A DNA stretch of 64,000 bases. Source: a phage. Below the pieces are notes generated by a model, which was not told the DNA's origin, ran no database searches, and saw only the letters and a list, made by a program, of their open reading frames with translations. Below are positions 4,664 to 23,175 of the stretch, one piece after another. Made by a program: the position numbers and the translations under genes. How positions within the stretch are numbered: position 1 is the first letter of the stretch; every line of letters starts with the position of its first letter. The stretch lies in NCBI GenBank assembly GCA_026683435.1, contig GCA_026683435.1_4866.1, one strand, 5' to 3'.

Positions 4664-5287
4664 ATGGCACAACTGTTGCCTAACACGCCTCAGGTTAACC
4701 TTGAGGGGTTGTTCAAGGTTAAGACACCTTATACGTTGCCAGATAAAGTGATTTACCGTGTTGACGCGGTACAGAACTTTCCGAAACTCCAACGTAATAA
4801 TATTGACGTTTATAACAAGTATTATAAACCTGTCGGCCTAACTCGTGACGACTATATCAGCGACGCTAATGTCGAAGCCTCGATTGTAACATTAAAGTCG
4901 AGGGACGGTCAAGTCTACGAGTTGCCTGATACGTACATTGAGACGTATCCTGGACTGAACGGGTTAAATTATAGACGCAATGTGGTGGTTATTGACCTGG
5001 CATTAATACCCGAATACGTCGATGTCACACTGCTAACGAACGACCTGAAAAGCATCTTAGAACGCGGTTTAGGAATCGAAGCACGTGTGGACATCACATC
5101 GATGGATTACGAAGGGACGGTGACGGAAGAAGAACACTTGCAAATGGAAGCGGTGCGTAAAGCCAAAATCCGTGAGCAGGTTCCTCTGACAGAACAAGTT
5201 GCAACACTCACTAAGCAGAATCAAGAACTGCAGGCGTTGAATGATGCGATGTTGAAAATCCTGAAAGATAACGGGTTAACAAATTAA
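4664..5287 (+). CDS. hypothetical protein (207 aa), coiled-coil C-terminus
   Basis: ORF 10 nt after previous gene; C-terminal heptad-like LTEQVATLTKQNQELQALNDAMLKILK; followed by a strong terminator. Confidence 0.6.
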   Translation: MAQLLPNTPQVNLEGLFKVKTPYTLPDKVIYRVDAVQNFPKLQRNNIDVYNKYYKPVGLTRDDYISDANVEASIVTLKSRDGQVYELPDTYIETYPGLNGLNYRRNVVVIDLALIPEYVDVTLLTNDLKSILERGLGIEARVDITSMDYEGTVTEEEHLQMEAVRKAKIREQVPLTEQVATLTKQNQELQALNDAMLKILKDNGLTN

Positions 5288-5302
5288 AGAAAAAAAAAGA
5301 AC

Positions 5303-5340
5303 TACCTACTCCCTTGGGAGTAGGTAGGCTTTTATTTTTA
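5303..5340. terminator. bidirectional rho-independent terminator
   Basis: Stem CTACCTACTCCC / GGGAGTAGGTAG flanked by an A-tract upstream and TTTTATTTTT downstream, between convergent genes 4664..5287 (+) and 5346..6503 (-). Confidence 0.7.
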
Positions 5341-5345
5341 TCGCA

Positions 5346-6503
5346 TTATTTACCGATGATATCACGGACCATTGCTTTGATTGTGGCAACAGTACGTTTC
5401 TTTTTCGGCAGCTTGCGGATTTCTGCGTACAGTTTATCCAGGTTCAGCGTTTTCTGTACCTGCGCAACAATCTGCATTTGCTCTTCGTCGATCTTCACTT
5501 CGACGGTTTGTTCCTGCATTTTGCCCAGTTCCTGAATCACACTGGAAACCGATACCGGATAAGCTGTTGATTTTGGACGTTCGATACCGAGGGTAACAAA
5601 GATTTCGTCGTCAATAAACACATTTTCGATATCAACCAAGTTTTCCAGAATGATTTCATCGTGGTCTTCATCTTCCGACGCATTCGGGTATGGACGTTTG
5701 TAGGTGTAATCCCACACGTCATAACCGAGTTTATCTGCGAGTTGTACGAAACCTTCCCAGGTTACTTCGCCGGGGTTGATAGTCTGACCACGGAAACCGG
5801 GGTTGGCCGTAAAGACTTTCACCCAGTCGATGTTCGCGATGTTACGACACTCTTCCAGCGGCGCGTAACGATCTCCCACTTCGTCATTGTCAGTCTCTTC
5901 AACATGCTCTGCTTCACAACGCTCGAAAGTAACTGAGTGTGGTTTACCGTCACCGAAGATAACGGAGGCAGCACGCCAGTCTTCGATAGTCCACTGGACA
6001 TGAGTCAATTCAATGTAACAATGCCCAACCTTAACACGACCATGTGGAGCACTTACTGGTTTAATCAGCTCACCTGGTTCGAAGAAGAATTCGTCAGAAT
6101 GTGCAATGGCATACCAGACACCATCAACACCTTCAACGAGAATAGACCAGTTATAAGGCGCGTGGCAATTTTGGAAAGCTACGCCCAGCATACTTCCCCA
6201 ACGGTCATCTGGCGAATATTTCAGTGGCGGCAGGTTATCAAACTGAAGAGTTTGAGAAGAAAGGCACAACTTATTACGCAGGTGCGGCAGCGGCAGATAA
6301 GCCTCCACATTGTTATCGACCAGCGCATTGTAAAGATCCGGGTTGATAACACCGGTGCCAGTGACGTGTTGTGCAATCAGAGCTTCTGAATATGCACGAA
6401 TACCTTCGTAGCTAAGCACATACGCACGGTCACGTACTACACGAGCCATATCTTCGATTACGGAAATTGGAAATTTCATGTTAATAGTCCTTATAAAAGT
6501 CAA
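5346..6503 (-). CDS. hypothetical protein (385 aa)
   Basis: Long ORF; no recognisable motif. Confidence 0.55.
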   Translation of the reverse strand: MTFIRTINMKFPISVIEDMARVVRDRAYVLSYEGIRAYSEALIAQHVTGTGVINPDLYNALVDNNVEAYLPLPHLRNKLCLSSQTLQFDNLPPLKYSPDDRWGSMLGVAFQNCHAPYNWSILVEGVDGVWYAIAHSDEFFFEPGELIKPVSAPHGRVKVGHCYIELTHVQWTIEDWRAASVIFGDGKPHSVTFERCEAEHVEETDNDEVGDRYAPLEECRNIANIDWVKVFTANPGFRGQTINPGEVTWEGFVQLADKLGYDVWDYTYKRPYPNASEDEDHDEIILENLVDIENVFIDDEIFVTLGIERPKSTAYPVSVSSVIQELGKMQEQTVEVKIDEEQMQIVAQVQKTLNLDKLYAEIRKLPKKKRTVATIKAMVRDIIGK

Positions 6504-11639: not shown

Positions 11640-11831
11640 TCATGTCCGTTCTCCTATATCTCGCCACTCACAACGCGTGTCGAACAGACGTTCTTTAAGA
11701 GCAGCAGCTAAATAAACGACCGCAGCGATAACCACTACGGTTGCACAAAAGGAGAGGTACAGTACCATCACAACAAACTGAAGGAACTGAAAACCCCACC
11801 AAGCCCATAAGCGCCAACCGTTATGATGCAT
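11640..11831 (-). CDS. small membrane protein (63 aa)
   Basis: W-rich N-terminus then hydrophobic FVVMVLYLSFCATVVVIAAVVYLAAAL; its start overlaps the stop of the SbcC-like gene. Confidence 0.35.
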   Translation of the reverse strand: MHHNGWRLWAWWGFQFLQFVVMVLYLSFCATVVVIAAVVYLAAALKERLFDTRCEWRDIGERT

Positions 11832-14331
11832 ATTTGATTATTACCCCTTCGTTATAAACCGGTGGAAGCGTTACACCTTCTGGCTCCACGACACAGTAGG
11901 TGGCTTCGTTAAGTTTAGAATGAACTTCCGCTTCATGCGAAACGACCAGCAATTGAGAAAACTCTCCCGACAACGCCAACGATTTAATGAAGTTGACCAG
12001 TCGATTTTTGTGTTCTTCATCCATGCCTTCAGAGGGTTCATCCAATAACAAAGGATAGTTTTGTAAACCAAGCGCTTTATACGCTGTTAAACGAAACATC
12101 ATGTTAAAGATAATACGCTGTGCCTTCGAACCTTTCTTCACATCCGGCACCAGTTCTTCATGGTCTTTTAATCGCACCGGGAAAGTATAATCCAAATCCC
12201 CGTCGGTTAGATCGCATGGAATAACCTGCATCGGATATGCCCATACCGTTTCGATATACCGATTCATTAAATCCATGATGCGGGTAATCGCAGCATAAAA
12301 GTAACGACGCAATAATCCCTTTTCGGGTGAGACGGCATTGATAATCAATCTGGCATGATGGTGTTCTTTGAGCAACTCAGCTTGCTCTTTTTCCAATTCC
12401 GCTAAACGTGCAATAGCCCCTTCCATTTGACGAAACCGTTCACGAGCGGAAGTGTACGCATCGAGCTTCGCTTCGCGTCGGTTTAACAACTCGCGAACCA
12501 CGACGTTGTTAACGGAGATGTTCATTTCCGATACCAGATGTTCGTAGCCTTTTTGGAAACGTTCGATTGCTTCTTTGGTTTGTTGCAGTTGGGTGGTTTC
12601 GCGTTCCAGCACATTGGCTTGTCTGCGGTATTCTATCAGTCGACGGTTAGCCCCGTCCAGTTGTGAACGGATATGTTCAATTTTCTGGCTCAGCGCACCA
12701 TCAACGTTACCTACTGCGGCAACAGCCTCTTGCCATTCCCGTTCCGCTGTTGCAAGCTTCTCCGATTGACGCAGATACATCATGGCCGAATCTAGCTCTT
12801 CAGTAAAGGCACGTGCAATGGCACCGTAACGATCCCGCGCCATGGTGAAGATATCCAGCTCCTGCAGTTTACGGAAAAACAAACCGACAACGGGATGGTT
12901 GGAATACGACATGACGATTTCGCGAATCGTACGTAAGCTACGGACGTCCTCTTCAATCTCTTTGCGGTCACGCAAAAGACTATCCATTTCGTCTTTCAGC
13001 TGCTTCTTCCAACCTTCATTATCGTTGATGGCCTTTTCAATTTCAGGTAACGACTTACGAATCCCAGGACGGAAACGGTGGTTACACTGTGGACAATCAA
13101 CTTCTGCAGTTTCTAAGAAGTGTTGACGGTCGTGGTATAAACCGTGTAGCACATTCTCACAACGTTGCAGCTTTTCAGATAGACCCGCAGAGGTTAAATC
13201 CATACCCTGTAAACGCTTCTCTAACGCTCCCAGGCGCTCTGTTGTCTTTAACTGGTCCAGATGCATGGACAACGGTAAATTCCAGTTACAGGCATCGTTT
13301 AACGCGTTCTGAATGCTATCCACATCGATGCGGGTGCCTTCAAACAGAGCCGGGAACATCCAGTTCTGTTGGAACGTTGCCAGTTCCTGTTTTAAGCTGT
13401 CGATTGTTTGTTTTAGACCGGTATGGTTGCGCATCAGATATGCTTGACGCGACTCCTCATCCAGTAGCTGTGACAACTCTTTATTGTACATGTTGCATTC
13501 AGTTTCAGCAGAGGCCGCTTGCTCACGCCAGGCAACCACACGACTTTGAAACTCGTTAATCAGTTCGTCAGAAGGCAGAACGCCATAACGTTCCATAATG
13601 AGTTTTACAGCCGGTTGCAACGAGGCAATGCGTTTCCGGATACTATCAACCGAAACGGCGTTATCTAAACCGGGTCTCGCTTCAATGGTGCGGTTTAGTT
13701 CCTGAAGCTCAACGTCCAGTTCTTTCAAACGAACTTCTAAACGTGCACGATCTTCTTCATCGTCCACCACGCGCATTTTTGCCTCACCGATTTTACGGCC
13801 GGTGTGCTCAATGGCCCCACTTAAACTGGAAGCGAGTTTACGCAGACGACGATAACAACCAACGACGTACGTCAGATCAGATTCTGACATTAACGTAAAC
13901 CATTTACGACGAACTTCAGTGGTAGCGTCTGTTAATAAGGTTTCACCGTTAATTAACTCTTTGATTTCTTTGGTGATCCCGGTTAACTGTTCCACCATGG
14001 AGTTGTAAACTTTGGCGTTTACCGAGTCTACGACGGAGACACCTTTAGTGATGTTGAAGATACTACAAGACAGAGAAGAGCCACGACGCAGGACTTCAAA
14101 CTTAAGACGGTCGTCCCCAACTAACGCGTAGTTAGTGTAGGAACCACCTTCACGGAATTCTGATTTTGCTGGAGCTAAGGGGAGAAAAACAGATAGGAGG
14201 CTTGTTTTACCGCAGCCGTTGCCACCGAGGATGATGGTAACGGTTGACTTAAGGGTGAAATCAAACGTTTCGATTTCATGTAACCCCATGCCGGTAAATC
14301 CTTTCAAAATGATACGTTCGACCTTGAGCAT
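11821..14331 (-). CDS. SbcC/Rad50-like recombination ATPase
   Basis: N-terminal Walker A GGNGCGKTS; long central coiled-coil with CPQC zinc hook near its middle; C-terminal Walker B LLLDEPSEG and H-loop VVSHEA. Confidence 0.75.
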   Translation of the reverse strand: MLKVERIILKGFTGMGLHEIETFDFTLKSTVTIILGGNGCGKTSLLSVFLPLAPAKSEFREGGSYTNYALVGDDRLKFEVLRRGSSLSCSIFNITKGVSVVDSVNAKVYNSMVEQLTGITKEIKELINGETLLTDATTEVRRKWFTLMSESDLTYVVGCYRRLRKLASSLSGAIEHTGRKIGEAKMRVVDDEEDRARLEVRLKELDVELQELNRTIEARPGLDNAVSVDSIRKRIASLQPAVKLIMERYGVLPSDELINEFQSRVVAWREQAASAETECNMYNKELSQLLDEESRQAYLMRNHTGLKQTIDSLKQELATFQQNWMFPALFEGTRIDVDSIQNALNDACNWNLPLSMHLDQLKTTERLGALEKRLQGMDLTSAGLSEKLQRCENVLHGLYHDRQHFLETAEVDCPQCNHRFRPGIRKSLPEIEKAINDNEGWKKQLKDEMDSLLRDRKEIEEDVRSLRTIREIVMSYSNHPVVGLFFRKLQELDIFTMARDRYGAIARAFTEELDSAMMYLRQSEKLATAEREWQEAVAAVGNVDGALSQKIEHIRSQLDGANRRLIEYRRQANVLERETTQLQQTKEAIERFQKGYEHLVSEMNISVNNVVVRELLNRREAKLDAYTSARERFRQMEGAIARLAELEKEQAELLKEHHHARLIINAVSPEKGLLRRYFYAAITRIMDLMNRYIETVWAYPMQVIPCDLTDGDLDYTFPVRLKDHEELVPDVKKGSKAQRIIFNMMFRLTAYKALGLQNYPLLLDEPSEGMDEEHKNRLVNFIKSLALSGEFSQLLVVSHEAEVHSKLNEATYCVVEPEGVTLPPVYNEGVIIKYAS

Positions 14332-14379
14332 GTTTGCCTTCTAATGAGAAAGTATTAGTCGTTCATATCCAAAAGGTCA

Positions 14380-14416
14380 TGCGTAAAAAAGAAGAAATGG
14401 AACCCCGAAGGGTTCC
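14380..14416 (-). terminator. rho-independent terminator
   Basis: Stem GGAACCC / GGGTTCC with loop CGAA; minus strand continues ATTTCTTCTTTTTTAC. Confidence 0.6.
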
Positions 14417-14427
14417 AGAGAGGAGAG

Positions 14428-15054
14428 TTATTGCGGAATAAACTTACGGTGTCCGAGTGATTCCCAAAAACTATCGGTGCGCTCTTTGGTTAATTCATAC
14501 CACGCCCGCCCGGCATCAGAATCGACAACCTTTAACGTTTCAGTAAGCAGGAATTTGAACAGTTCGGCACTACGACCGGGTGCCACGCCGTCGAGATATA
14601 TCGGGATTAAATAACCGGTTTTGATTTCTTCGTACGCTTGCGATTGGTGCTGGCCAACAACCCAGGCATCAGCAGCGCTACCGACCAAAGTGGTGTTTAC
14701 AGTCAACTCATCAGAAATCCAGTTAACTGTATCAGCCATTATTGAATCGCCATTGACGTAGAAGAAAACCAAACGCTTAGGTTGCTCCACCGAACCAGCC
14801 AAATCTAATGCGGTGGTTCCGGTAAAGATCGTATTGTTAGGGTTACGTTCTGCAATAGGTAGAGCAAACCACGCTTCTAGCTGTTCCCAGCTACGCGGCA
14901 GTGCTTCTTTAAACCACTTCACCAATCGCGGGTATTCCAGAAACCCTTCTACCTCTTCTTCCATCAGATTGATACGCAGTTTGGTATCCCGACGATTCGC
15001 TTTCTGACACGTCACCATGTCGTCGATGAAACGAATCAGGGTAATCTCGTTCAT
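14428..15054 (-). CDS. hypothetical protein (208 aa)
   Basis: ORF flanked by terminators; no phosphoesterase (Mre11/SbcD) motifs seen. Confidence 0.5.
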   Translation of the reverse strand: MNEITLIRFIDDMVTCQKANRRDTKLRINLMEEEVEGFLEYPRLVKWFKEALPRSWEQLEAWFALPIAERNPNNTIFTGTTALDLAGSVEQPKRLVFFYVNGDSIMADTVNWISDELTVNTTLVGSAADAWVVGQHQSQAYEEIKTGYLIPIYLDGVAPGRSAELFKFLLTETLKVVDSDAGRAWYELTKERTDSFWESLGHRKFIPQ

Positions 15055-15065
15055 GTTTAATCCTT

Positions 15066-15100
15066 CTTCAACAAAAAAAGAAGGTAGCCCGTAGGCTACC
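15066..15100 (-). terminator. rho-independent terminator
   Basis: Stem AGGTAGCC / GGCTACCT with loop CGTA; minus strand followed by TCTTTTTTTGTTG. Confidence 0.65.
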
Positions 15101-15108
15101 TCTCGTAT

Positions 15109-15609
15109 TTACAGCCCCATATGCATAAGGGAAATGATTGGGACCTTATGGCCACGAATCATTGCATACGGTTCGTACATTTGTGCGTTGGTTTCGAATA
15201 ACTCACAGGCCGGAATACGGTCACCGGTAGAGAGTTGTAAGACCTCAATTTGGTCGCCCCAGAAGTTATTCACTAATACGTGGTCGACGGTGTTGTCTTC
15301 ACGACCTTCAGGGGTGCTACGATAGGTGGCTGCATCGTACCAACCTTTGCGGTATACTTCATATCCCGCGTGAAGCATCCGGTAGTACGGACGTAGCTGT
15401 GGGGCATTCAACGCAGCATCTAACCATTCGCTGTGGATGCTGTTAATCAGTACAGTTGCTTCTGCTGGCCAGTCGGTGCGATTGAGGGTTAACTCGCCTA
15501 ACAACTTCAACTTCCAACCAGTAGAAAGAATAGCACGGGTACGTTCAGGGTTAACGTTCATCTGAGTAAAGAAAGAAGAACGGGTATCGTCGAGAATGTT
15601 CATGTTCAT
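15109..15609 (-). CDS. hypothetical protein (~166 aa)
   Basis: ORF track 15109..15675; ATG at 15607-15609 is preceded by SD TAAGGAT. Confidence 0.5.
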   Translation of the reverse strand: MNMNILDDTRSSFFTQMNVNPERTRAILSTGWKLKLLGELTLNRTDWPAEATVLINSIHSEWLDAALNAPQLRPYYRMLHAGYEVYRKGWYDAATYRSTPEGREDNTVDHVLVNNFWGDQIEVLQLSTGDRIPACELFETNAQMYEPYAMIRGHKVPIISLMHMGL

Positions 15610-15629
15610 TTGCTTAATCCTTACGGGTA

Positions 15630-15639
15630 ATAGTCGATT
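15630..15639 (-). promoter_or_regulatory. recurrent AATCGACTAT motif (1 of 3), candidate promoter element
   Basis: Minus-strand AATCGACTAT 21-30 nt upstream of ATG 15609; the same 10-mer recurs at 16578-16587 and 17459-17468. Confidence 0.25.
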
Positions 15640-15709
15640 AAAAAGGACCCTGCGGCTAAGTGTTGGGGAAATCACCGCAGGGCCAAAGTGAGATGGGTCG
15701 TCATCTCAC
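15636..15709 (-). terminator. tandem hairpins, probable terminator
   Basis: Inverted repeats GTGAGATG..CATCTCAC and GACCCTGCGG..CCGCAGGG downstream of stop at 15739; minus strand then TCCTTTTTAA. Confidence 0.4.
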
Positions 15710-15738
15710 GTTATAACATCTGTCTGAAAACTTTTCGG

Positions 15739-16122
15739 TTACTGGTCGAGCGCTATTGAACCACGCACTTCGCCTTGTTGTTCAATAACCAGGAGGCGCT
15801 GTTTGGTTTTCGTATTGTAAGCGAGCGACGCGCGAAGCGTCGGGTCGCACGTTATTGTCTCTACTGGCACAATCTCTTGTGCCTTTGAGTTCAACAGAAA
15901 GTAATAACCTGCCGGACAAGTTTCCTCGCCCTTTGCGTGGACTAGGATGTACTCGTCGTGCCGGCTGACTTCTTCACATCTACCATCGTCGCCAGTACAG
16001 ACTTCGAACGAAGGCGGGTTGTACTGATACGGTGTGCCTGGTAGTAAATCTTCTACGCTGGTTGTAGCTGAAGCAGAAGCGGTCAAGAACACCGCCGCGA
16101 TAATACCCATAAATCCACGCAT
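15739..16122 (-). CDS. secreted small protein (signal peptide, Cys-containing)
   Basis: N-terminus MRGFMGIIAAVFLTASASA; six Cys in the mature part. Confidence 0.5.
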   Translation of the reverse strand: MRGFMGIIAAVFLTASASATTSVEDLLPGTPYQYNPPSFEVCTGDDGRCEEVSRHDEYILVHAKGEETCPAGYYFLLNSKAQEIVPVETITCDPTLRASLAYNTKTKQRLLVIEQQGEVRGSIALDQ

Positions 16123-16135
16123 GTTGTTTCCTTAC

Positions 16136-16546
16136 TTAAAAGTCGAGTTTATTGATGCCCACGTTTTTCTTAATCGTAGGGTCGTACATGATAACCGTCA
16201 GGGCATTGTCGCCTGGGTCGCGAGTAAACTCGGCAACGGCTTCACCACTGCAGGCTTGGTTATCATTATAGTTCATGGATTCGGCTTGCCCGGTTGCCAT
16301 GTTAATGACCCCGTATTCAGGGTCGCCACATGCGACACCGCCCATCGTTTTCACTAACAGATAACGGTTGTTATCGGACATCGCAACGATCTGGCAGCTA
16401 CCGCCTTGTACGTCAGAGTTCTGGCACCAGAACTCTCCGCCGTATTCGTGATCGTTAACAACTTTTGGTAACTCGATACTTCCAGCACGAGCGAAGAAGC
16501 TAATGGCCAGAGTAGCAAGTAAAACTGGTAATAAAAAATGTTTCAT
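16136..16546 (-). CDS. secreted small protein (signal peptide, Cys-containing)
   Basis: N-terminus MKHFLLPVLLATLAISFFARA; SD GAGGTG upstream. Confidence 0.55.
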   Translation of the reverse strand: MKHFLLPVLLATLAISFFARAGSIELPKVVNDHEYGGEFWCQNSDVQGGSCQIVAMSDNNRYLLVKTMGGVACGDPEYGVINMATGQAESMNYNDNQACSGEAVAEFTRDPGDNALTVIMYDPTIKKNVGINKLDF

Positions 16547-16568
16547 AATAGCACCTCAATTTTTTGAG

Positions 16569-17060
16569 TTATTCTGAATAGTCGATTGTTTTGATGGTTT
16601 CCATACCGTAGTACATAGCGATGGAGGCCAGAGTTTTGGTATCCGGTCGCTGTACAAAACCGGCCCTGAAATCTTTGCTGCAAATTTTCTCCACTGATAG
16701 TTCATCACGATTAGGGATAAGCCATAACGCGTCACCGTTGTGACGGTCGACTGCACCCCACCAACCTCCTGGGCAATCTTTATCGCCCGGACGGTGTACG
16801 ATAGCGACACGACCGTTGAAGGATATGTCAACTACACGACACTGTTTCTTAAGCAGCTTACGCGCATTGCACCAGAACGGCTTATCATTAAGATTGATGG
16901 TGCGGGTATATGCTGGAATGCTGCCGTTAATACTGCCCTGGAACCCGCTGAATTCGTCAGCGCGTGCCTTAGAAATCCGTAGCCCAACAACAACTGCCAT
17001 CAACAGCACAGTAAAAAGCACCACTTTGGCCAAGTGGCGATTAACGTTATTGCATTTCAT
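16569..17060 (-). CDS. secreted or membrane-anchored small protein
   Basis: ORF track 16569..17105; likely start MKCNNVNRHLAKVVLFTVLLMAVVVGL (signal/anchor) at 17058-17060 with SD GGAGAT. Confidence 0.5.
   Translation of the reverse strand: MKCNNVNRHLAKVVLFTVLLMAVVVGLRISKARADEFSGFQGSINGSIPAYTRTINLNDKPFWCNARKLLKKQCRVVDISFNGRVAIVHRPGDKDCPGGWWGAVDRHNGDALWLIPNRDELSVEKICSKDFRAGFVQRPDTKTLASIAMYYGMETIKTIDYSE
16578..16587 (-). promoter_or_regulatory. recurrent AATCGACTAT motif (2 of 3)
   Basis: Lies in the 3' end of 16569..17060, 32-41 nt upstream of ATG 16546. Confidence 0.25.
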
Positions 17061-17448
17061 TTTTGATATCTCCACGAATGAGGGTGATGCGACCAACGAG
17101 CACATCGTTGTGATAAAAACTCACAGCAACCAGATCTGGTAATTCCAACGGTGATACGCTGACCGAAGTGACTTTTGGTTGATCGCACGATATGTCGATT
17201 AACCGCTGATACATTTTCAATTTCTTATCAGCGATAACCAGCCCTGTGCAGTTCTTACCGTCCGTCAGTCTGTAGATTTGTAACTGTTCGACCTCACGCA
17301 TCAGTTCCGGTTTTTCATTCGGCGCAATGCCATAATCCGAATCAGCTGATGTGTATTCAGTCACGTCTGGCTTATCGAAAGCATAAGTTGCTGCAATGCC
17401 ACATGCGGCCAGAACTACTACTGCTTGTAAGAACTTCTTGATAGTCAT
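17047..17448 (-). CDS. putative lipoprotein
   Basis: N-terminus MTIKKFLQAVVVLAACG with lipobox-like LAAC. Confidence 0.5.
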   Translation of the reverse strand: MTIKKFLQAVVVLAACGIAATYAFDKPDVTEYTSADSDYGIAPNEKPELMREVEQLQIYRLTDGKNCTGLVIADKKLKMYQRLIDISCDQPKVTSVSVSPLELPDLVAVSFYHNDVLVGRITLIRGDIKNEMQ

Positions 17449-17458
17449 GTTTTACTCT

Positions 17459-17468
17459 ATAGTCGATT
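17459..17468 (-). promoter_or_regulatory. recurrent AATCGACTAT motif (3 of 3)
   Basis: Between terminator 17471-17502 and ATG 17448; minus strand reads CAATCGACTATAGAGTAAAACATG. Confidence 0.25.
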
Positions 17469-17470
17469 GG

Positions 17471-17502
17471 TTTAAAAAAGAATAGGCTACCCGAGGGTAG
17501 CC
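17471..17502 (-). terminator. rho-independent terminator
   Basis: Stem GGCTACC / GGTAGCC; minus strand followed by TATTCTTTTTTAAA. Confidence 0.65.
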
Positions 17503-17553
17503 AGTTGAGTTAATCTCTTAACTCTCACCTAGGTAATATATATCTGAGATATT

Positions 17554-18141
17554 TTACAATGTGAACGTTGTGTTAAGAATACGAAAACCCAACGCACGCT
17601 TAGCGATTTGCATATTTGCAGGCGTAAAGTCCACCAGTTTGATTTGAACGATCGATAAATCGTAAAGCTTGTGAAGCACTTCGATTTTGTGTCGCCAATC
17701 TGTTTTTTGGTGCAGCTCTATCGTCGTTGGTATCTCGCCTAGTCTCGGCAACTGTGCTCCAAGTAAACGATGGTGGACTTTACCGTTTATAGTTGGAGTG
17801 CCTTCCGTGACCATCAGCCGCGCATCGATGTAGTTATTTCGCTTAGCGTATTCCATAAAAGTTTTGACGTTTATCTTTTCCTCGTATAGAATGCTGCGAA
17901 AGTATTCGTAAATGATGTGTCCCGCCACCTTACCACTTTCCGAGTCCGGAATAACCTTATCGATGAAAATCGCAGAGACCACTTCGCTCCCACGCGAATG
18001 CATTGTAATGACCCTATCCCCGTGCTGTGCGGCAGTTAATAATCCACTCACATCAAGCCCCACCGGAAACAAGCCACGACTACGCATTACGTGCAGGTCT
18101 TCTAACTTGTTCTCTTGCAGTCGTAAAATACGTTCTGTCAT
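17554..18141 (-). CDS. hypothetical protein (~195 aa)
   Basis: ORF track 17554..18150 starts at GTG; ATG at 18139-18141 with SD GAGGTG 7 nt upstream. Confidence 0.5.
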   Translation of the reverse strand: MTERILRLQENKLEDLHVMRSRGLFPVGLDVSGLLTAAQHGDRVITMHSRGSEVVSAIFIDKVIPDSESGKVAGHIIYEYFRSILYEEKINVKTFMEYAKRNNYIDARLMVTEGTPTINGKVHHRLLGAQLPRLGEIPTTIELHQKTDWRHKIEVLHKLYDLSIVQIKLVDFTPANMQIAKRALGFRILNTTFTL

Positions 18142-18170
18142 ATACCACACCTCAAATTAATTTGAGTTAA

Positions 18171-18215
18171 GTGTAAAAAATAAGAGGACTCCAGTAACCC
18201 TCGTGGTTACTGGAG
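18171..18215 (-). terminator. rho-independent terminator
   Basis: Stem CTCCAGTAACC / GGTTACTGGAG; minus strand followed by TCCTCTTATTTTTTAC. Confidence 0.7.
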
Positions 18216-18220
18216 ATAAA

Positions 18221-18748
18221 CTACACACTCAACGTTTCAATGAATTTGATGCGCGCTGGGTGAAATGTGTGATAAACAGTTACCGGTGCGTGCGGGCCTT
18301 CGGCTGCGTGTATTGCGCCATCGTATCCGCTCAGCAACAGATGGTCATATATCGCACCACAGTTATACGCCACTGATGCCCATAGTGGTAACTTGTCAAA
18401 CTCTTTAGGGTGTTGGTGGTAAACCTCCATCAAACCCTTTTCAGGATGACGCTCTTGGATACGCTCCCACTCATTTGTTTCAATGAGCAAGTTCCCTTTC
18501 TTCTGTGCAACTGTCTGGTATTGATGCGGGGAAAGAATCTCGCGGAAATTACCGATATCGACGAACGGGTCAGTAGGATCGTCGATAAACGGATTGGTGA
18601 TTTCCAAAGAAACGTGGTTGATTAGCCGGCTGGGATTCGCTTTAACAATTTCAGCAGGGACGTCGATGTCTTTATAGACAACTTGAGAACGTGAAAGGTT
18701 AGCCTCAACAAACGGCTTATCAGTAACAATATAACCTTCGAGTTTCAT
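18221..18748 (-). CDS. hypothetical protein (175 aa)
   Basis: ORF only. Confidence 0.5.
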   Translation of the reverse strand: MKLEGYIVTDKPFVEANLSRSQVVYKDIDVPAEIVKANPSRLINHVSLEITNPFIDDPTDPFVDIGNFREILSPHQYQTVAQKKGNLLIETNEWERIQERHPEKGLMEVYHQHPKEFDKLPLWASVAYNCGAIYDHLLLSGYDGAIHAAEGPHAPVTVYHTFHPARIKFIETLSV

Positions 18749-19311
18749 TATAAGGCTCCTTTAAAGTGGTATGTCATGCTTTCTACGAGGTGAGAAGTCT
18801 GGCTTTCAAAGAAGTGTAAAACGGGTTCGAGCGGCACACCACCGAGATTATAAATAGTGACGTCCTGCTTTAATCCCGCATTAACTTCACTAAGAAAAGA
18901 CTCGATTGCCTGTTCGCTGTTCGTTGTGGAGAGGGTGATCATTGTTTCACCATCTTCGCTAAAGCCTGACGCATCTTGTAAACGTAAAACGCTTGGCACA
19001 GTTTTACTAATACGGATGTCTGGCGGAAGGACGACCTCCAATTGTGGCGTACGTACTTTACGCGCAAGGTAATTAACAAACAGATTGACATCAAGCTCAC
19101 TGACTCCGCAGCAAATGCAGTTTAGAACTGTTGCCAAACTCGTTGTCTTCCGTTCAAAAATTCCCTTGATCTGTTTAGCTTTATCGCTGTAAAGGAACAC
19201 CAGTAGTTGGTCGGGATTATCTGGTAAATCCTTTTCCACTCCCTCCCATTCCGGATCGTCGCGGATATGTTCTTGCCAGATATCGTTACGTATTTCTAAC
19301 AAGCGGAACAT
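18748..19311 (-). CDS. hypothetical protein (187 aa)
   Basis: ORF; stop overlaps the start of the downstream gene. Confidence 0.5.
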   Translation of the reverse strand: MFRLLEIRNDIWQEHIRDDPEWEGVEKDLPDNPDQLLVFLYSDKAKQIKGIFERKTTSLATVLNCICCGVSELDVNLFVNYLARKVRTPQLEVVLPPDIRISKTVPSVLRLQDASGFSEDGETMITLSTTNSEQAIESFLSEVNAGLKQDVTIYNLGGVPLEPVLHFFESQTSHLVESMTYHFKGAL

Positions 19312-22965: not shown

Positions 22966-23175
22966 ATGAGCATTCGTGAAATCACCGCAGGCAGCGACGT
23001 TTCTGGTCTGGTAGAAGCAGGCACTGTTCAGGTTTCTGGACTGAGCACCGTTACCGAAGTTACCGAAGCGCTGGCTAAGAAAGCCGAAGCTGAAGGCGGC
23101 GTAGCATTTAAAGTTACCGCTTGTGGCGGCAACAACAAAATGTTCGGCAACGCCATCTATTACGTAAACGCGTAA
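22966..23175 (+). CDS. DUF1471 (BhsA/YdgH-like) domain protein without signal peptide
   Basis: AGTVQVSGLSTVTEVTEALAKKAEAEGGVAFKVTACGGNNKMFGNAIYYVNA parallels the enterobacterial BhsA C-terminal domain (VGTISA..LEEQLAQKADEMGAKSFRITS...GTAVIYK); an in-frame stop sits directly before the ATG, so no signal peptide; SD GGAGAT. Confidence 0.55.
   Translation: MSIREITAGSDVSGLVEAGTVQVSGLSTVTEVTEALAKKAEAEGGVAFKVTACGGNNKMFGNAIYYVNA

Follow-up and report, generated by a model that had tools for sequence, protein, structure and literature searches.

A recurrent leader motif and an array of predicted exported proteins in SPN3US-like jumbo phages

For the early transcripts that phiKZ-related phages make with their virion RNA polymerase (RNAP), AT-rich motifs centred near position -10 have been described (reviewed in PMC7598289), and the predicted early-promoter consensus is TATATTAC in phiKZ and TTTCARRYAKATATTATYWAAGTG in OBP and N1M2 (PMC7058600, Table 2). 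The present analysis deals with a 64,000-nucleotide (nt) stretch of phage DNA (GenBank assembly GCA_026683435.1, contig GCA_026683435.1_4866.1; referred to below as the window), which carries a minus-strand operon of four small genes and, upstream of genes in the same region, three copies of the 10-mer AATCGACTAT. A 2.3-kb region of the window containing these genes is 96.5 to 97.8% identical to phage SPN3US and its close relatives. These belong to the genus Seoulvirus, are phiKZ-related jumbo phages of ∼240 kb, and infect Salmonella, Escherichia coli, and Erwinia. The four genes are the counterparts of SPN3US_0180 to SPN3US_0183 (gp180 to gp183), each of which is annotated as “hypothetical protein”. 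AATCGACTAT is the conserved third (3') module of a leader cassette that recurs throughout the SPN3US genome, and we consider it moderately probable that the genes form an early operon of periplasmic proteins, driven by the virion RNAP and equipped with a cis-acting leader element.

The box found upstream of the operon, TCTCAGATATATATTACCTAGGTGAG, is a known kind of signal: together with seven strong copies in SPN3US, it fits the phiKZ-related early-promoter consensus almost base for base. However, the published consensus sequences end in ...GTG and do not include the 5' hairpin or the AATCGACTAT(TA) module that lies ∼28 nt further downstream. Two conserved directional signals placed in series before a subset of genes, along with both virion and non-virion multisubunit RNAPs, are also found in the Bacillus jumbo phage AR9, the late one of the two being short and located at the start site (PMC7598289). 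The AR9 signals were mapped by differential RNA sequencing, whereas those described here are predicted from the sequence; besides, the second element is rare here (about 13 copies), and the sequence of AATCGACTAT is neither that of the AR9 nor that of the phiKZ late consensus.

In T4-type phages, Arbiol, Comeau and Krisch reportedly described in 2010 the “PeSL” cassettes, in which an early promoter and a stem-loop are repeated in front of early genes. The resemblance lies in a repeated modular unit of promoter and stem-loop that heads small early genes of unknown function and whose conserved ends could promote modular shuffling. The differences are that the T4-type units use the host sigma-70, whereas those described here would be read by the phage virion RNAP, that the phages belong to another lineage, and that in the SPN3US-type unit the ribosome-binding site is preceded by an additional 10-mer, conserved and single-stranded.

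Early exported phage proteins that mediate superinfection exclusion or receptor masking include Imm and Sp of T4, Llp of T5, and Cor. The gp180 to gp183 proteins resemble them in being small, carrying export signals, and being apparently early; in the SPN3US virion papers that were searched, gp180 to gp183 are not listed among the virion proteins and gp180 to gp184 are not mentioned at all. In contrast to these proteins, with which they share no sequence or fold similarity, gp180 to gp183 are encoded in a conserved array of three or four paralogs and not by a single gene.

The leader cassette and its third module

The preliminary description of this DNA, which was based on the sequence alone, had drawn attention to three copies of AATCGACTAT upstream of start codons. 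These copies are all on the minus strand, against 0.12 expected in the window. On its own, the window is weak evidence, as 398 different 10-mers occur in it at least three times and 16% of dinucleotide-shuffled windows hold some 10-mer that is clustered three times within 2 kb; only one more site with a single mismatch to AATCGACTAT is present, inside a gene. The motif is regarded as real because of a genome-wide scan and its conservation across genera, not because of the window count. In SPN3US (240,413 nt, put together from five annotated pieces), AATCGACTAT has 8 exact copies versus about 0.46 expected (2 × 240,413/4^10), all 8 of them on the main coding strand. There is a positional bias as well: six of the eight exact copies lie in the sense orientation no more than 70 nt upstream of a start codon (at 30-55 nt; binomial P = 4e-8), and so do 7 of the 22 copies with one mismatch (binomial P = 5e-6), the usual distance to the ATG being 20 to 31 nt. 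Among the 7-mers enriched in the regions from -70 to -11, AATCGAC, TCGACTA, and CGACTAT came just behind terminator T-tracts, among early-promoter words. In all, about 13 copies of the motif stand upstream of genes in 240 kb, and none of these precedes a structural or late gene. A full-text literature search for AATCGACTAT returned no phage paper. The sole other clustered 10-mer repeat in the window is contained in the 11-mer TCTGGTGGTTG, found three times within 500 nt on one strand (39304-39807, plus strand).

The elements recognized in the leader regions of the operon and of the gene that follows it are listed below in the order of transcription; all of them are on the minus strand.

17524..17549, minus: phiKZ-family early (virion RNAP) promoter-like box TCTCAGATATATATTACCTAGGTGAG (consensus TTTCAGATATATATTACCTAGGTGAG), upstream of motif copy A
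17507..17526, minus: 5' leader hairpin GAGAGTTAAGAGATTAACTC, predicted by folding
17474..17502, minus: terminator-like GC hairpin with a T-run, inserted between the leader hairpin and motif copy A
17459..17468, minus: AATCGACTAT copy A, first base 20 nt before the gp180 ATG (17448)
16578..16587, minus: AATCGACTAT copy B, within the last codons of gp181, first base 41 nt before the gp182 ATG (16546)
15705..15729, minus: degenerate early-promoter-like box TTTCAGACAGATGTTATAACGTGAG upstream of gp184, aligned to the box of Erwinia phage Wellington
15640..15709, minus: gp184 leader hairpin (15709..15688) and then a terminator hairpin with a T-run (15684..15640), predicted by folding; closes the four-gene operon
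15630..15639, minus: AATCGACTAT copy C, first base 30 nt before the gp184 ATG (15609)

The box at 17549..17524 matches CAGATATATATTAC with no mismatches and is the only copy in the window with two mismatches or fewer. In SPN3US, seven strong sites (at most one mismatch), which fit the AT-rich TATATTAC consensus extended to TTTCARRYAKATATTAYYWADGTG, head gene blocks of mostly unknown function. Each of these seven boxes is followed by the motif with no more than one mismatch, at offsets of 28, 29, 28, 31, 28, 37, and 63 nt. The offset is thus 28 to 31 nt in five of the seven cases and 37 nt at gp005, whereas the value of about 63-64 nt at gp180 is due to the inserted terminator-like hairpin. The same order of elements, that is, a phiKZ-type early promoter (TTTCAGATATATATTACYTAGGTGAG), a variable 5' hairpin, AATCGACTAT(TA), a Shine-Dalgarno sequence, and ATG, is seen at gp005, gp055, gp066, gp101, gp135, gp180, and gp249; in detail, the cassette reads TTTCAGATATATATTAC(C/T)TAGGTGAG, variable hairpin, AATCGAC(T/C)AT TA, 4-6 nt, AAGGAG, ATG. 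AATCGACTAT is the downstream module of an early-promoter cassette and probably not a promoter by itself. Motif copies without a consensus early box are found upstream of gp251 and also inside gp100 and gp247.

A hairpin occupies the leader position in every SPN3US cassette, and its stem sequence is different each time. When the leader is folded from GGTGAG, the assumed transcription start, a hairpin forms at the very 5' end and AAUCGACUAU is predicted to be unpaired just before the Shine-Dalgarno sequence. A MAFFT alignment of six cassettes leaves the stems out of register, and RNAalifold therefore missed the leader hairpin in it; folding of each leader separately shows the hairpin. Since the stems have fully diverged while the promoter and the motif have been kept, the cassettes point to selection on the motif rather than to recent copying. 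A search against Rfam 15 gave no hit at the gathering score in the whole window and none at E ≤ 1 within 15400..17700.

Comparison of the orthologous sites in related phages sets the three copies apart. The early box upstream of the gp180 cluster is kept in SPN3US, SPAsTU, and SNUABM29, and copy A is approximately conserved, as AATCGACNNT or AATTCGACTAT, in the genera Seoulvirus and Erskinevirus (specifically, AATCGACTGT in SPN3US, AATCGACCAT in SPAsTU, AATCGACAAT in SNUABM29, and AATTCGACTAT in phiEaH2 and Asesino). Copy B is confined to the window and SPN3US-type phages, being absent from the orthologous site in SPAsTU, SNUABM29, phiEaH2, and Asesino. Copy C, by contrast, is exact in SPN3US, SPAsTU, SNUABM29, and phiEaH2 and retains 9 of 10 bases in Asesino and Wellington, although its flanking bases and spacer lengths differ among the Seoulvirus, Erskinevirus, and Wellingtonvirus phages. 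This last copy looked like a stand-alone element behind a terminator, but a degenerate box and a hairpin (15729..15688) lie upstream of that terminator, and Wellington has a near-consensus box, GATAGATATTACCTTGGTGAGAG, at the position that matches 15705..15729. The leaders of gp184 and gp180 are therefore built alike: box, hairpin, terminator hairpin, motif, Shine-Dalgarno sequence, and ATG. Beyond these phages, a scan of IMG/VR for ATATTAYNTAGGTG-N15-45-AATCGAC found 13 sites, 8 of which are full cassettes with AATCGAC(T/C)AT, a Shine-Dalgarno sequence, and ATG (in SPN3US, ChrisDB, Huxley, phiEaH2, and a 246-kb contig). When the motif was reversed as a control, the scan gave 7 sites, none of them on ∼240-kb contigs.

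Other putative signals were noted in the same genomes. A second subclass of SPN3US early boxes (GATAGATATTATCT, CAGATAGATATTATCT) stands upstream of gp009, gp022, gp030, gp034, gp076, gp209, and gp221 and lacks the 5' hairpin and the AATCGACTAT module, except at gp030, where just 8 nt separate the box from the motif. The pattern TTTTTTACGC-N-GGATATGAA, that is, (A/T)TTTAC-N16-18-TATG, is conserved at 14390..14362 (minus strand), just after a terminator and upstream of the SMC-like gene (14331..11821), and recurs upstream of SPN3US gp065 and other genes; the words TAGTATG and TATGACC are enriched upstream of SPN3US genes. This pattern is a candidate promoter of the non-virion RNAP (nvRNAP), resembling the phiKZ late TATG. 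Another sequence, TTTTTACACTTAACTCAAATTAATTTGAGGTG, is conserved after a terminator upstream of gp179 (18179..18148, minus strand), in SPAsTU and SNUABM29 as well; an inverted repeat within it, CTCAAAT..ATTTGAG, overlaps the ribosome-binding site.

The array of predicted exported proteins

The four open reading frames (ORFs) of the operon and the gene behind copy C are as follows.

17047..17448, minus: gp180 homologue, 133 amino acids (aa), predicted signal peptide, beta-rich; LAAC lipobox in this lineage only
16569..17060, minus: gp181 homologue, 163 aa from an internal ATG, predicted signal peptide with a long n-region, four conserved Cys residues
16136..16546, minus: gp182 homologue, 136 aa, predicted signal peptide, four conserved Cys residues, model resembling a two-blade beta-propeller
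15739..16122, minus: gp183 homologue, 127 aa, predicted signal peptide, four conserved Cys residues
15109..15609, minus: gp184 homologue, 166 aa, no signal peptide; gene behind motif copy C

All four ORFs of the preliminary description are present with exactly the boundaries it gave, and its view of them as an operon of small Cys-containing proteins with export signals, lying between terminators, is supported. The operon is compact: gp180 and gp181 share 14 nt, and gaps of 22 nt and 13 nt separate the genes that follow. Upstream there is a hairpin with a T-run (17502..17474) and downstream a strong double hairpin with a T-run (15709..15640; minimum free energy of -34 kcal/mol, z = -5.1). In SPN3US, gp180 to gp183 lie on the main coding strand, flanked by gp179 on one side and by the block of gp184, gp185, and the SMC-like gp186 on the other; the synteny of the gp184 homologue with gp185 and gp186 extends to every relative, among them a distant one of metagenomic origin.

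Several features of the locus may be added here. A terminator-like hairpin with a T-rich tail at 17039..17019 (minus strand) lies inside the region coding for the gp181 signal peptide and is probably a by-product of the coding sequence. In SPAsTU, SNUABM29, phiEaH2, ChrisDB, and Wellington, a gene for a protein of 79-83 aa (MELVIA...YRVI.CS...) is found between the terminator and the gp180 homologue (1845-2084 in locus L003, 1844-2083 in L004, 1833-2072 in L005, 2348-2599 in L007, and 2261-2506 in L008); the window and SPN3US lack this gene, so that the terminator adjoins motif copy A there. In the GenBank records of the Salmonella phages SPFM1, SPFM5-10, SPFM12, SPFM14, SPFM15, and SPFM20 (accessions LR535901, LR535903-LR535908, LR535911-LR535913, and LR535917), the region is matched as 4-7 short pieces by tblastn or 31-34 by megablast and the protein calls are truncated, which suggests many assembly indel errors rather than real gene decay.

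A signal-peptide heuristic was used that looks for a charged n-region, an uncharged hydrophobic h-region of at least 10 aa, and small residues at positions -3 and -1 before a polar mature part. By this heuristic, gp180 to gp183 all have a positive n-region, an uncharged h-region of 12-21 aa, and cleavage sites of the AXA type, the likely ones being TYA|FD, ARA|DE, ARA|GS, and ASA|TT, whereas these features are absent from three neighboring controls, gp179, gp184, and gp185. The N-terminal signal is kept in the orthologues from 11 jumbo-phage loci. The signal peptides suggested in the preliminary description are thus predicted for the whole set, but its lipobox applies at most to gp180: the L-A-A-C sequence at residues 13-16 is present in the window and in SPN3US, gp181 to gp183 have none, and the site is not conserved in gp180 orthologues. 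Lipidation of gp180 is doubtful because the LAAC sequence is lost in SPAsTU and SNUABM29, which have no Cys at this position, and because the A-V-C of the Erwinia phages does not fit the lipobox rule, [LVI][ASTVI][GAS]C at the h-region end. The description of several Cys residues per protein was accurate, with 3, 5, 4, and 4 in gp180, gp181, gp182, and gp183, respectively. As a side observation, a 69-aa ORF elsewhere in the window (22966..23175, plus strand) has an SPN3US counterpart that RefSeq annotates as DUF1471 domain-containing, the members of this family being periplasmic proteins of enterobacteria, and this phage ORF has no N-terminal signal peptide.

By sequence comparison, gp181, gp182, and gp183 are clear paralogs with four conserved Cys residues. 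The four proteins match, over their full length, PHROG families 9424, 17072, 8968, and 5248 (E values of 1e-43 to 3e-85), all of “unknown function” and kept as separate families: gp180 belongs to 9424, gp181 to 17072 with a cross-hit to 8968, and gp183 to 5248 with a cross-hit to 8968 (E = 0.0017). The cross-hits that join gp181, gp182, and gp183 have E values of 3e-8, 7e-6, and 2e-3; in BLASTP, gp181 matches gp182 at E = 5e-8, and a direct comparison of gp182 with gp183 gives only E = 0.09. In alignments of 20-23 family members from eight phages, gp181 to gp183 have in common four invariant or near-invariant Cys residues, with the pattern C-x6-9-C ... C ... C, and because of the cross-hits and this common pattern PHROGs 17072, 8968, and 5248 are considered a single family. 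The gp180 protein, by alignment, forms a well-conserved family of its own and is always the first gene of the array in the loci examined. It has no BLASTP match to the other array proteins and only a weak hhalign match to the gp181-gp183 profile (probability 5.7%, P = 0.0067, 69 columns), and it is a probable divergent paralog of them.

The family is narrow. An exhaustive hidden Markov model search of 1.84e9 representatives yielded only 33 proteins at E ≤ 0.001, nearly all of 100-165 aa. The few long hits (P0070, P0083, and P0086) were rejected as repeat-inflated sums of per-repeat scores, and P0074 and P0076, scrambled assemblies of gp183 and gp181, were left out. Wherever the context is visible, distant members are encoded upstream of gp184-like, gp185-like, and SMC-like genes. 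In IMG/VR, relatives of gp180 occur at 11 loci, all on jumbo-phage contigs (ten of 237-248 kb and one 42-kb fragment). The array consists of three consecutive signal-peptide genes in phages of the Machinavirus type or of four in Seoulvirus, Erskinevirus, and Wellingtonvirus, and it keeps its syntenic position in all related ∼240-kb phages that were examined. In Wellington-type phages, an extra gene for a 126-aa protein follows the exported array (L008, 4228-4608; L044-L047, about 5130-5560); this gp203-like protein has no signal peptide, contains a “WDGHHRVATAI” motif (ParB-like DGHHR), and is unrelated to the family.

AlphaFold2 models of gp180 and gp182 (pLDDT, the predicted local distance difference test score, of 78.1 and 85.6, respectively) have the same pattern of 4+3 beta-strands, with an N-terminal helix of low pLDDT in both. 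In the gp182 model, four-stranded antiparallel blades are radially arranged and resemble two blades of a beta-propeller; each chain provides only about two blades. Judging from these models, the most apt description of the mature domain is a pair of propeller-like blades held by putative disulfides, and the operon encodes four small beta-rich proteins with predicted Sec-type signal peptides. Foldseek searches of the PDB with both models found nothing significant, and gp180 to gp183 match no Pfam model even at E ≤ 10, PD40 and WD40 included, and nothing in PADLOC. Unlike the PD40/WD40 propellers, such as the periplasmic TolB and the oligomers of two-blade fragments (PDB 6r5x), these proteins thus lack a Pfam match, have ∼2 blades per chain, and contain four conserved Cys residues, which are not a propeller feature. 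Sequence-profile searches of the PDB did yield ThreeFoil (E = 8e-8) and WRAP-T/WD40 (E = 2e-4), but both are designed proteins with perfect repeats, and the hits add up scores of 3-11 bits per repeat, none of them significant by itself; they were therefore discarded.

Favored reading and its alternatives

According to the reading favored here, the virion RNAP would transcribe the operon soon after DNA injection, and gp180 to gp183 would be exported by the Sec system across the inner membrane and become disulfide-bonded in the periplasm. There they would act on the envelope, modifying or occupying one of its components, for example, to exclude a superinfecting phage or to protect the infected cell. 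Superinfection exclusion or inhibition of envelope enzymes, as put forward in the preliminary description, is a reasonable idea, and by analogy a role in superinfection exclusion or envelope protection appears most probable. The motif would be a single-stranded element of the mRNA leader, placed between a protective 5' hairpin and the ribosome-binding site, and would control the translation, processing, or stability of about a dozen early messages, with copies A and C carrying the leader function and copy B being a lineage-specific extra.

Several observations weigh against this reading. A terminator-like hairpin separates the early box from both gp180 and gp184, so that early transcripts would need to read through it, and in Erskinevirus, Machinavirus, and Wellingtonvirus the nearest early box lies one gene and one terminator further upstream, which makes the “early” class insecure for the clade as a whole. 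A literature search on SPN3US-like phages found no transcript data. The hhalign match that, along with the secondary-structure pattern, places gp180 in the family is weak. Finally, orthologue identities of the exported proteins are similar to or above those of their neighbors, except for gp181; with no faster evolution than in the neighboring genes, there is no sign of an arms race over a receptor or a defense system.

The preliminary description had also proposed that the motif may be a phage-specific promoter or operator. The part of this proposal that stands is that the motif is real, phage-specific, orientation-specific, and located upstream of starts; the part that does not is its identity with the promoter, as the promoter box lies upstream and the motif is a downstream module. 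A sigma-70 promoter was dropped as an explanation for AATCGACTAT, there being no sigma-70-like site on the minus strand in a scan of 14000..19000. A possible, if clearly less probable, alternative to a leader element is that AATCGACTAT(TA) is a short initiator-type promoter of the “middle” class, used by the nvRNAP. Tandem early and later promoters would then provide continuous expression, with transcription of gp180 and gp184 re-initiated just past the terminators. The motif indeed directly follows the terminator T-runs at these two genes, has no recognizable early box at gp251, and is strictly directional and placed 20-31 nt from the ATG, implying short leaders. The known nvRNAP promoters are likewise short and at the start site, T(-3)ATG(+1) in phiKZ and A(-11)ACA-N6-T-A/G(+1) in AR9 (PMC7598289), and continuously expressed AR9 genes have tandem early and late promoters. 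The extended motif, AAtc-GACTAT-TA, has the length and the AA...TA ends of the AR9 consensus, but this is a resemblance only: the outer AA...TA is all that it has of the AR9 pattern, and it contains no TATG. Against such a promoter speak the rarity of the motif (about 13 copies upstream of genes) and its absence before structural or late genes, the presence in the same genome of a different and more widespread nvRNAP candidate, (A/T)TTTAC-N16-18-TATG, the degenerate early box and hairpin that precede the gp184 copy (with the near-consensus box in Wellington), and the fixed spacing of 28-31 nt from the early box in most cassettes.

Two further readings are improbable when taken jointly. In the first, the three or four two-blade paralogs may form one hetero-oligomeric periplasmic beta-propeller with six or eight blades, a natural “split propeller” of a kind so far known mainly from engineered fragments; TolB, for instance, is a host propeller that it might imitate or titrate. 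In the second, the 5' hairpin and AAUCGACUAU may together label the early transcripts of the virion RNAP for a phage or host factor that reads them; such a label could, for example, single out messages for translation as they leave the early-infection vesicle, or for later shut-off.

It is also unlikely that the motif is a DNA operator at which a phage regulator, e.g., the gp101 product, bound at about +25, would block elongation from the early promoter later in infection. The fixed position of the motif downstream of the early box would suit an operator, and gp101, annotated as “putative transcriptional regulator”, is itself encoded behind a cassette. However, the 10-mer is not palindromic, all eight exact copies have one orientation, and some copies (at gp251 and inside gp100 and gp247) have no consensus early box.

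The notion that the three window copies arose by chance, or were passively left over from duplicated leader DNA without a function of their own, draws on the marginally unusual clustering in the window and on the lack of conservation of copy B; it has little to recommend it and is largely refuted for copies A and C by the genome-wide enrichment and positional bias, the full divergence of the intervening hairpin between cassettes that keep the motif, the exact or one-mismatch 10-mer at gp184 across three genera despite differing flanks, and the lack of an equivalent in the reversed-motif control.

An assignment of the proteins to lysis or lysozyme control, as spanins or as inhibitors of the MliC/PliC/Ivy type, is very improbable: all four have predicted export signals, and gp180, with its lipobox in this lineage, overlaps a gene whose product has a signal-anchor-like N terminus, superficially like an o-spanin/i-spanin pair, but the models consist of beta structure throughout and show no coiled coil, orthologues do not keep the lipobox, the endolysin is encoded by gp198 in another gene block about 9 kb off, the cluster stands behind an early-type and not a late-type promoter box, and the inhibitor folds that the preliminary description had in mind were not seen in the two-blade models, which show neither the eight-stranded barrel of MliC/PliC nor the alpha/beta fold of Ivy, nor was there a match to the profiles of these families.

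Significance for the SPN3US group

Both features, the exported paralogs and the leader motif, are real and are variations on known phage themes. The gp180 to gp183 proteins appear to be an uncharacterized, clade-restricted family, whose export, paralogy, and two-blade architecture appear not to have been described. SPN3US is the genetic model for the enterobacterial nucleus-forming jumbo phages, in which most early genes and all regulatory signals are uncharacterized. Four of its “hypothetical” genes now gain a predicted location in the periplasm, a family relationship, and a fold class, and the array proves to be constant throughout the ∼240-kb group of Seoulvirus, Erskinevirus, Machinavirus, and Wellingtonvirus phages. 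The composite early-gene cassette defined here contains a previously undescribed third module that marks a regulon of about a dozen genes. Should an action on the envelope be confirmed, gp180 to gp183 would become the first proteins of this phage group to be assigned as periplasmic effectors.

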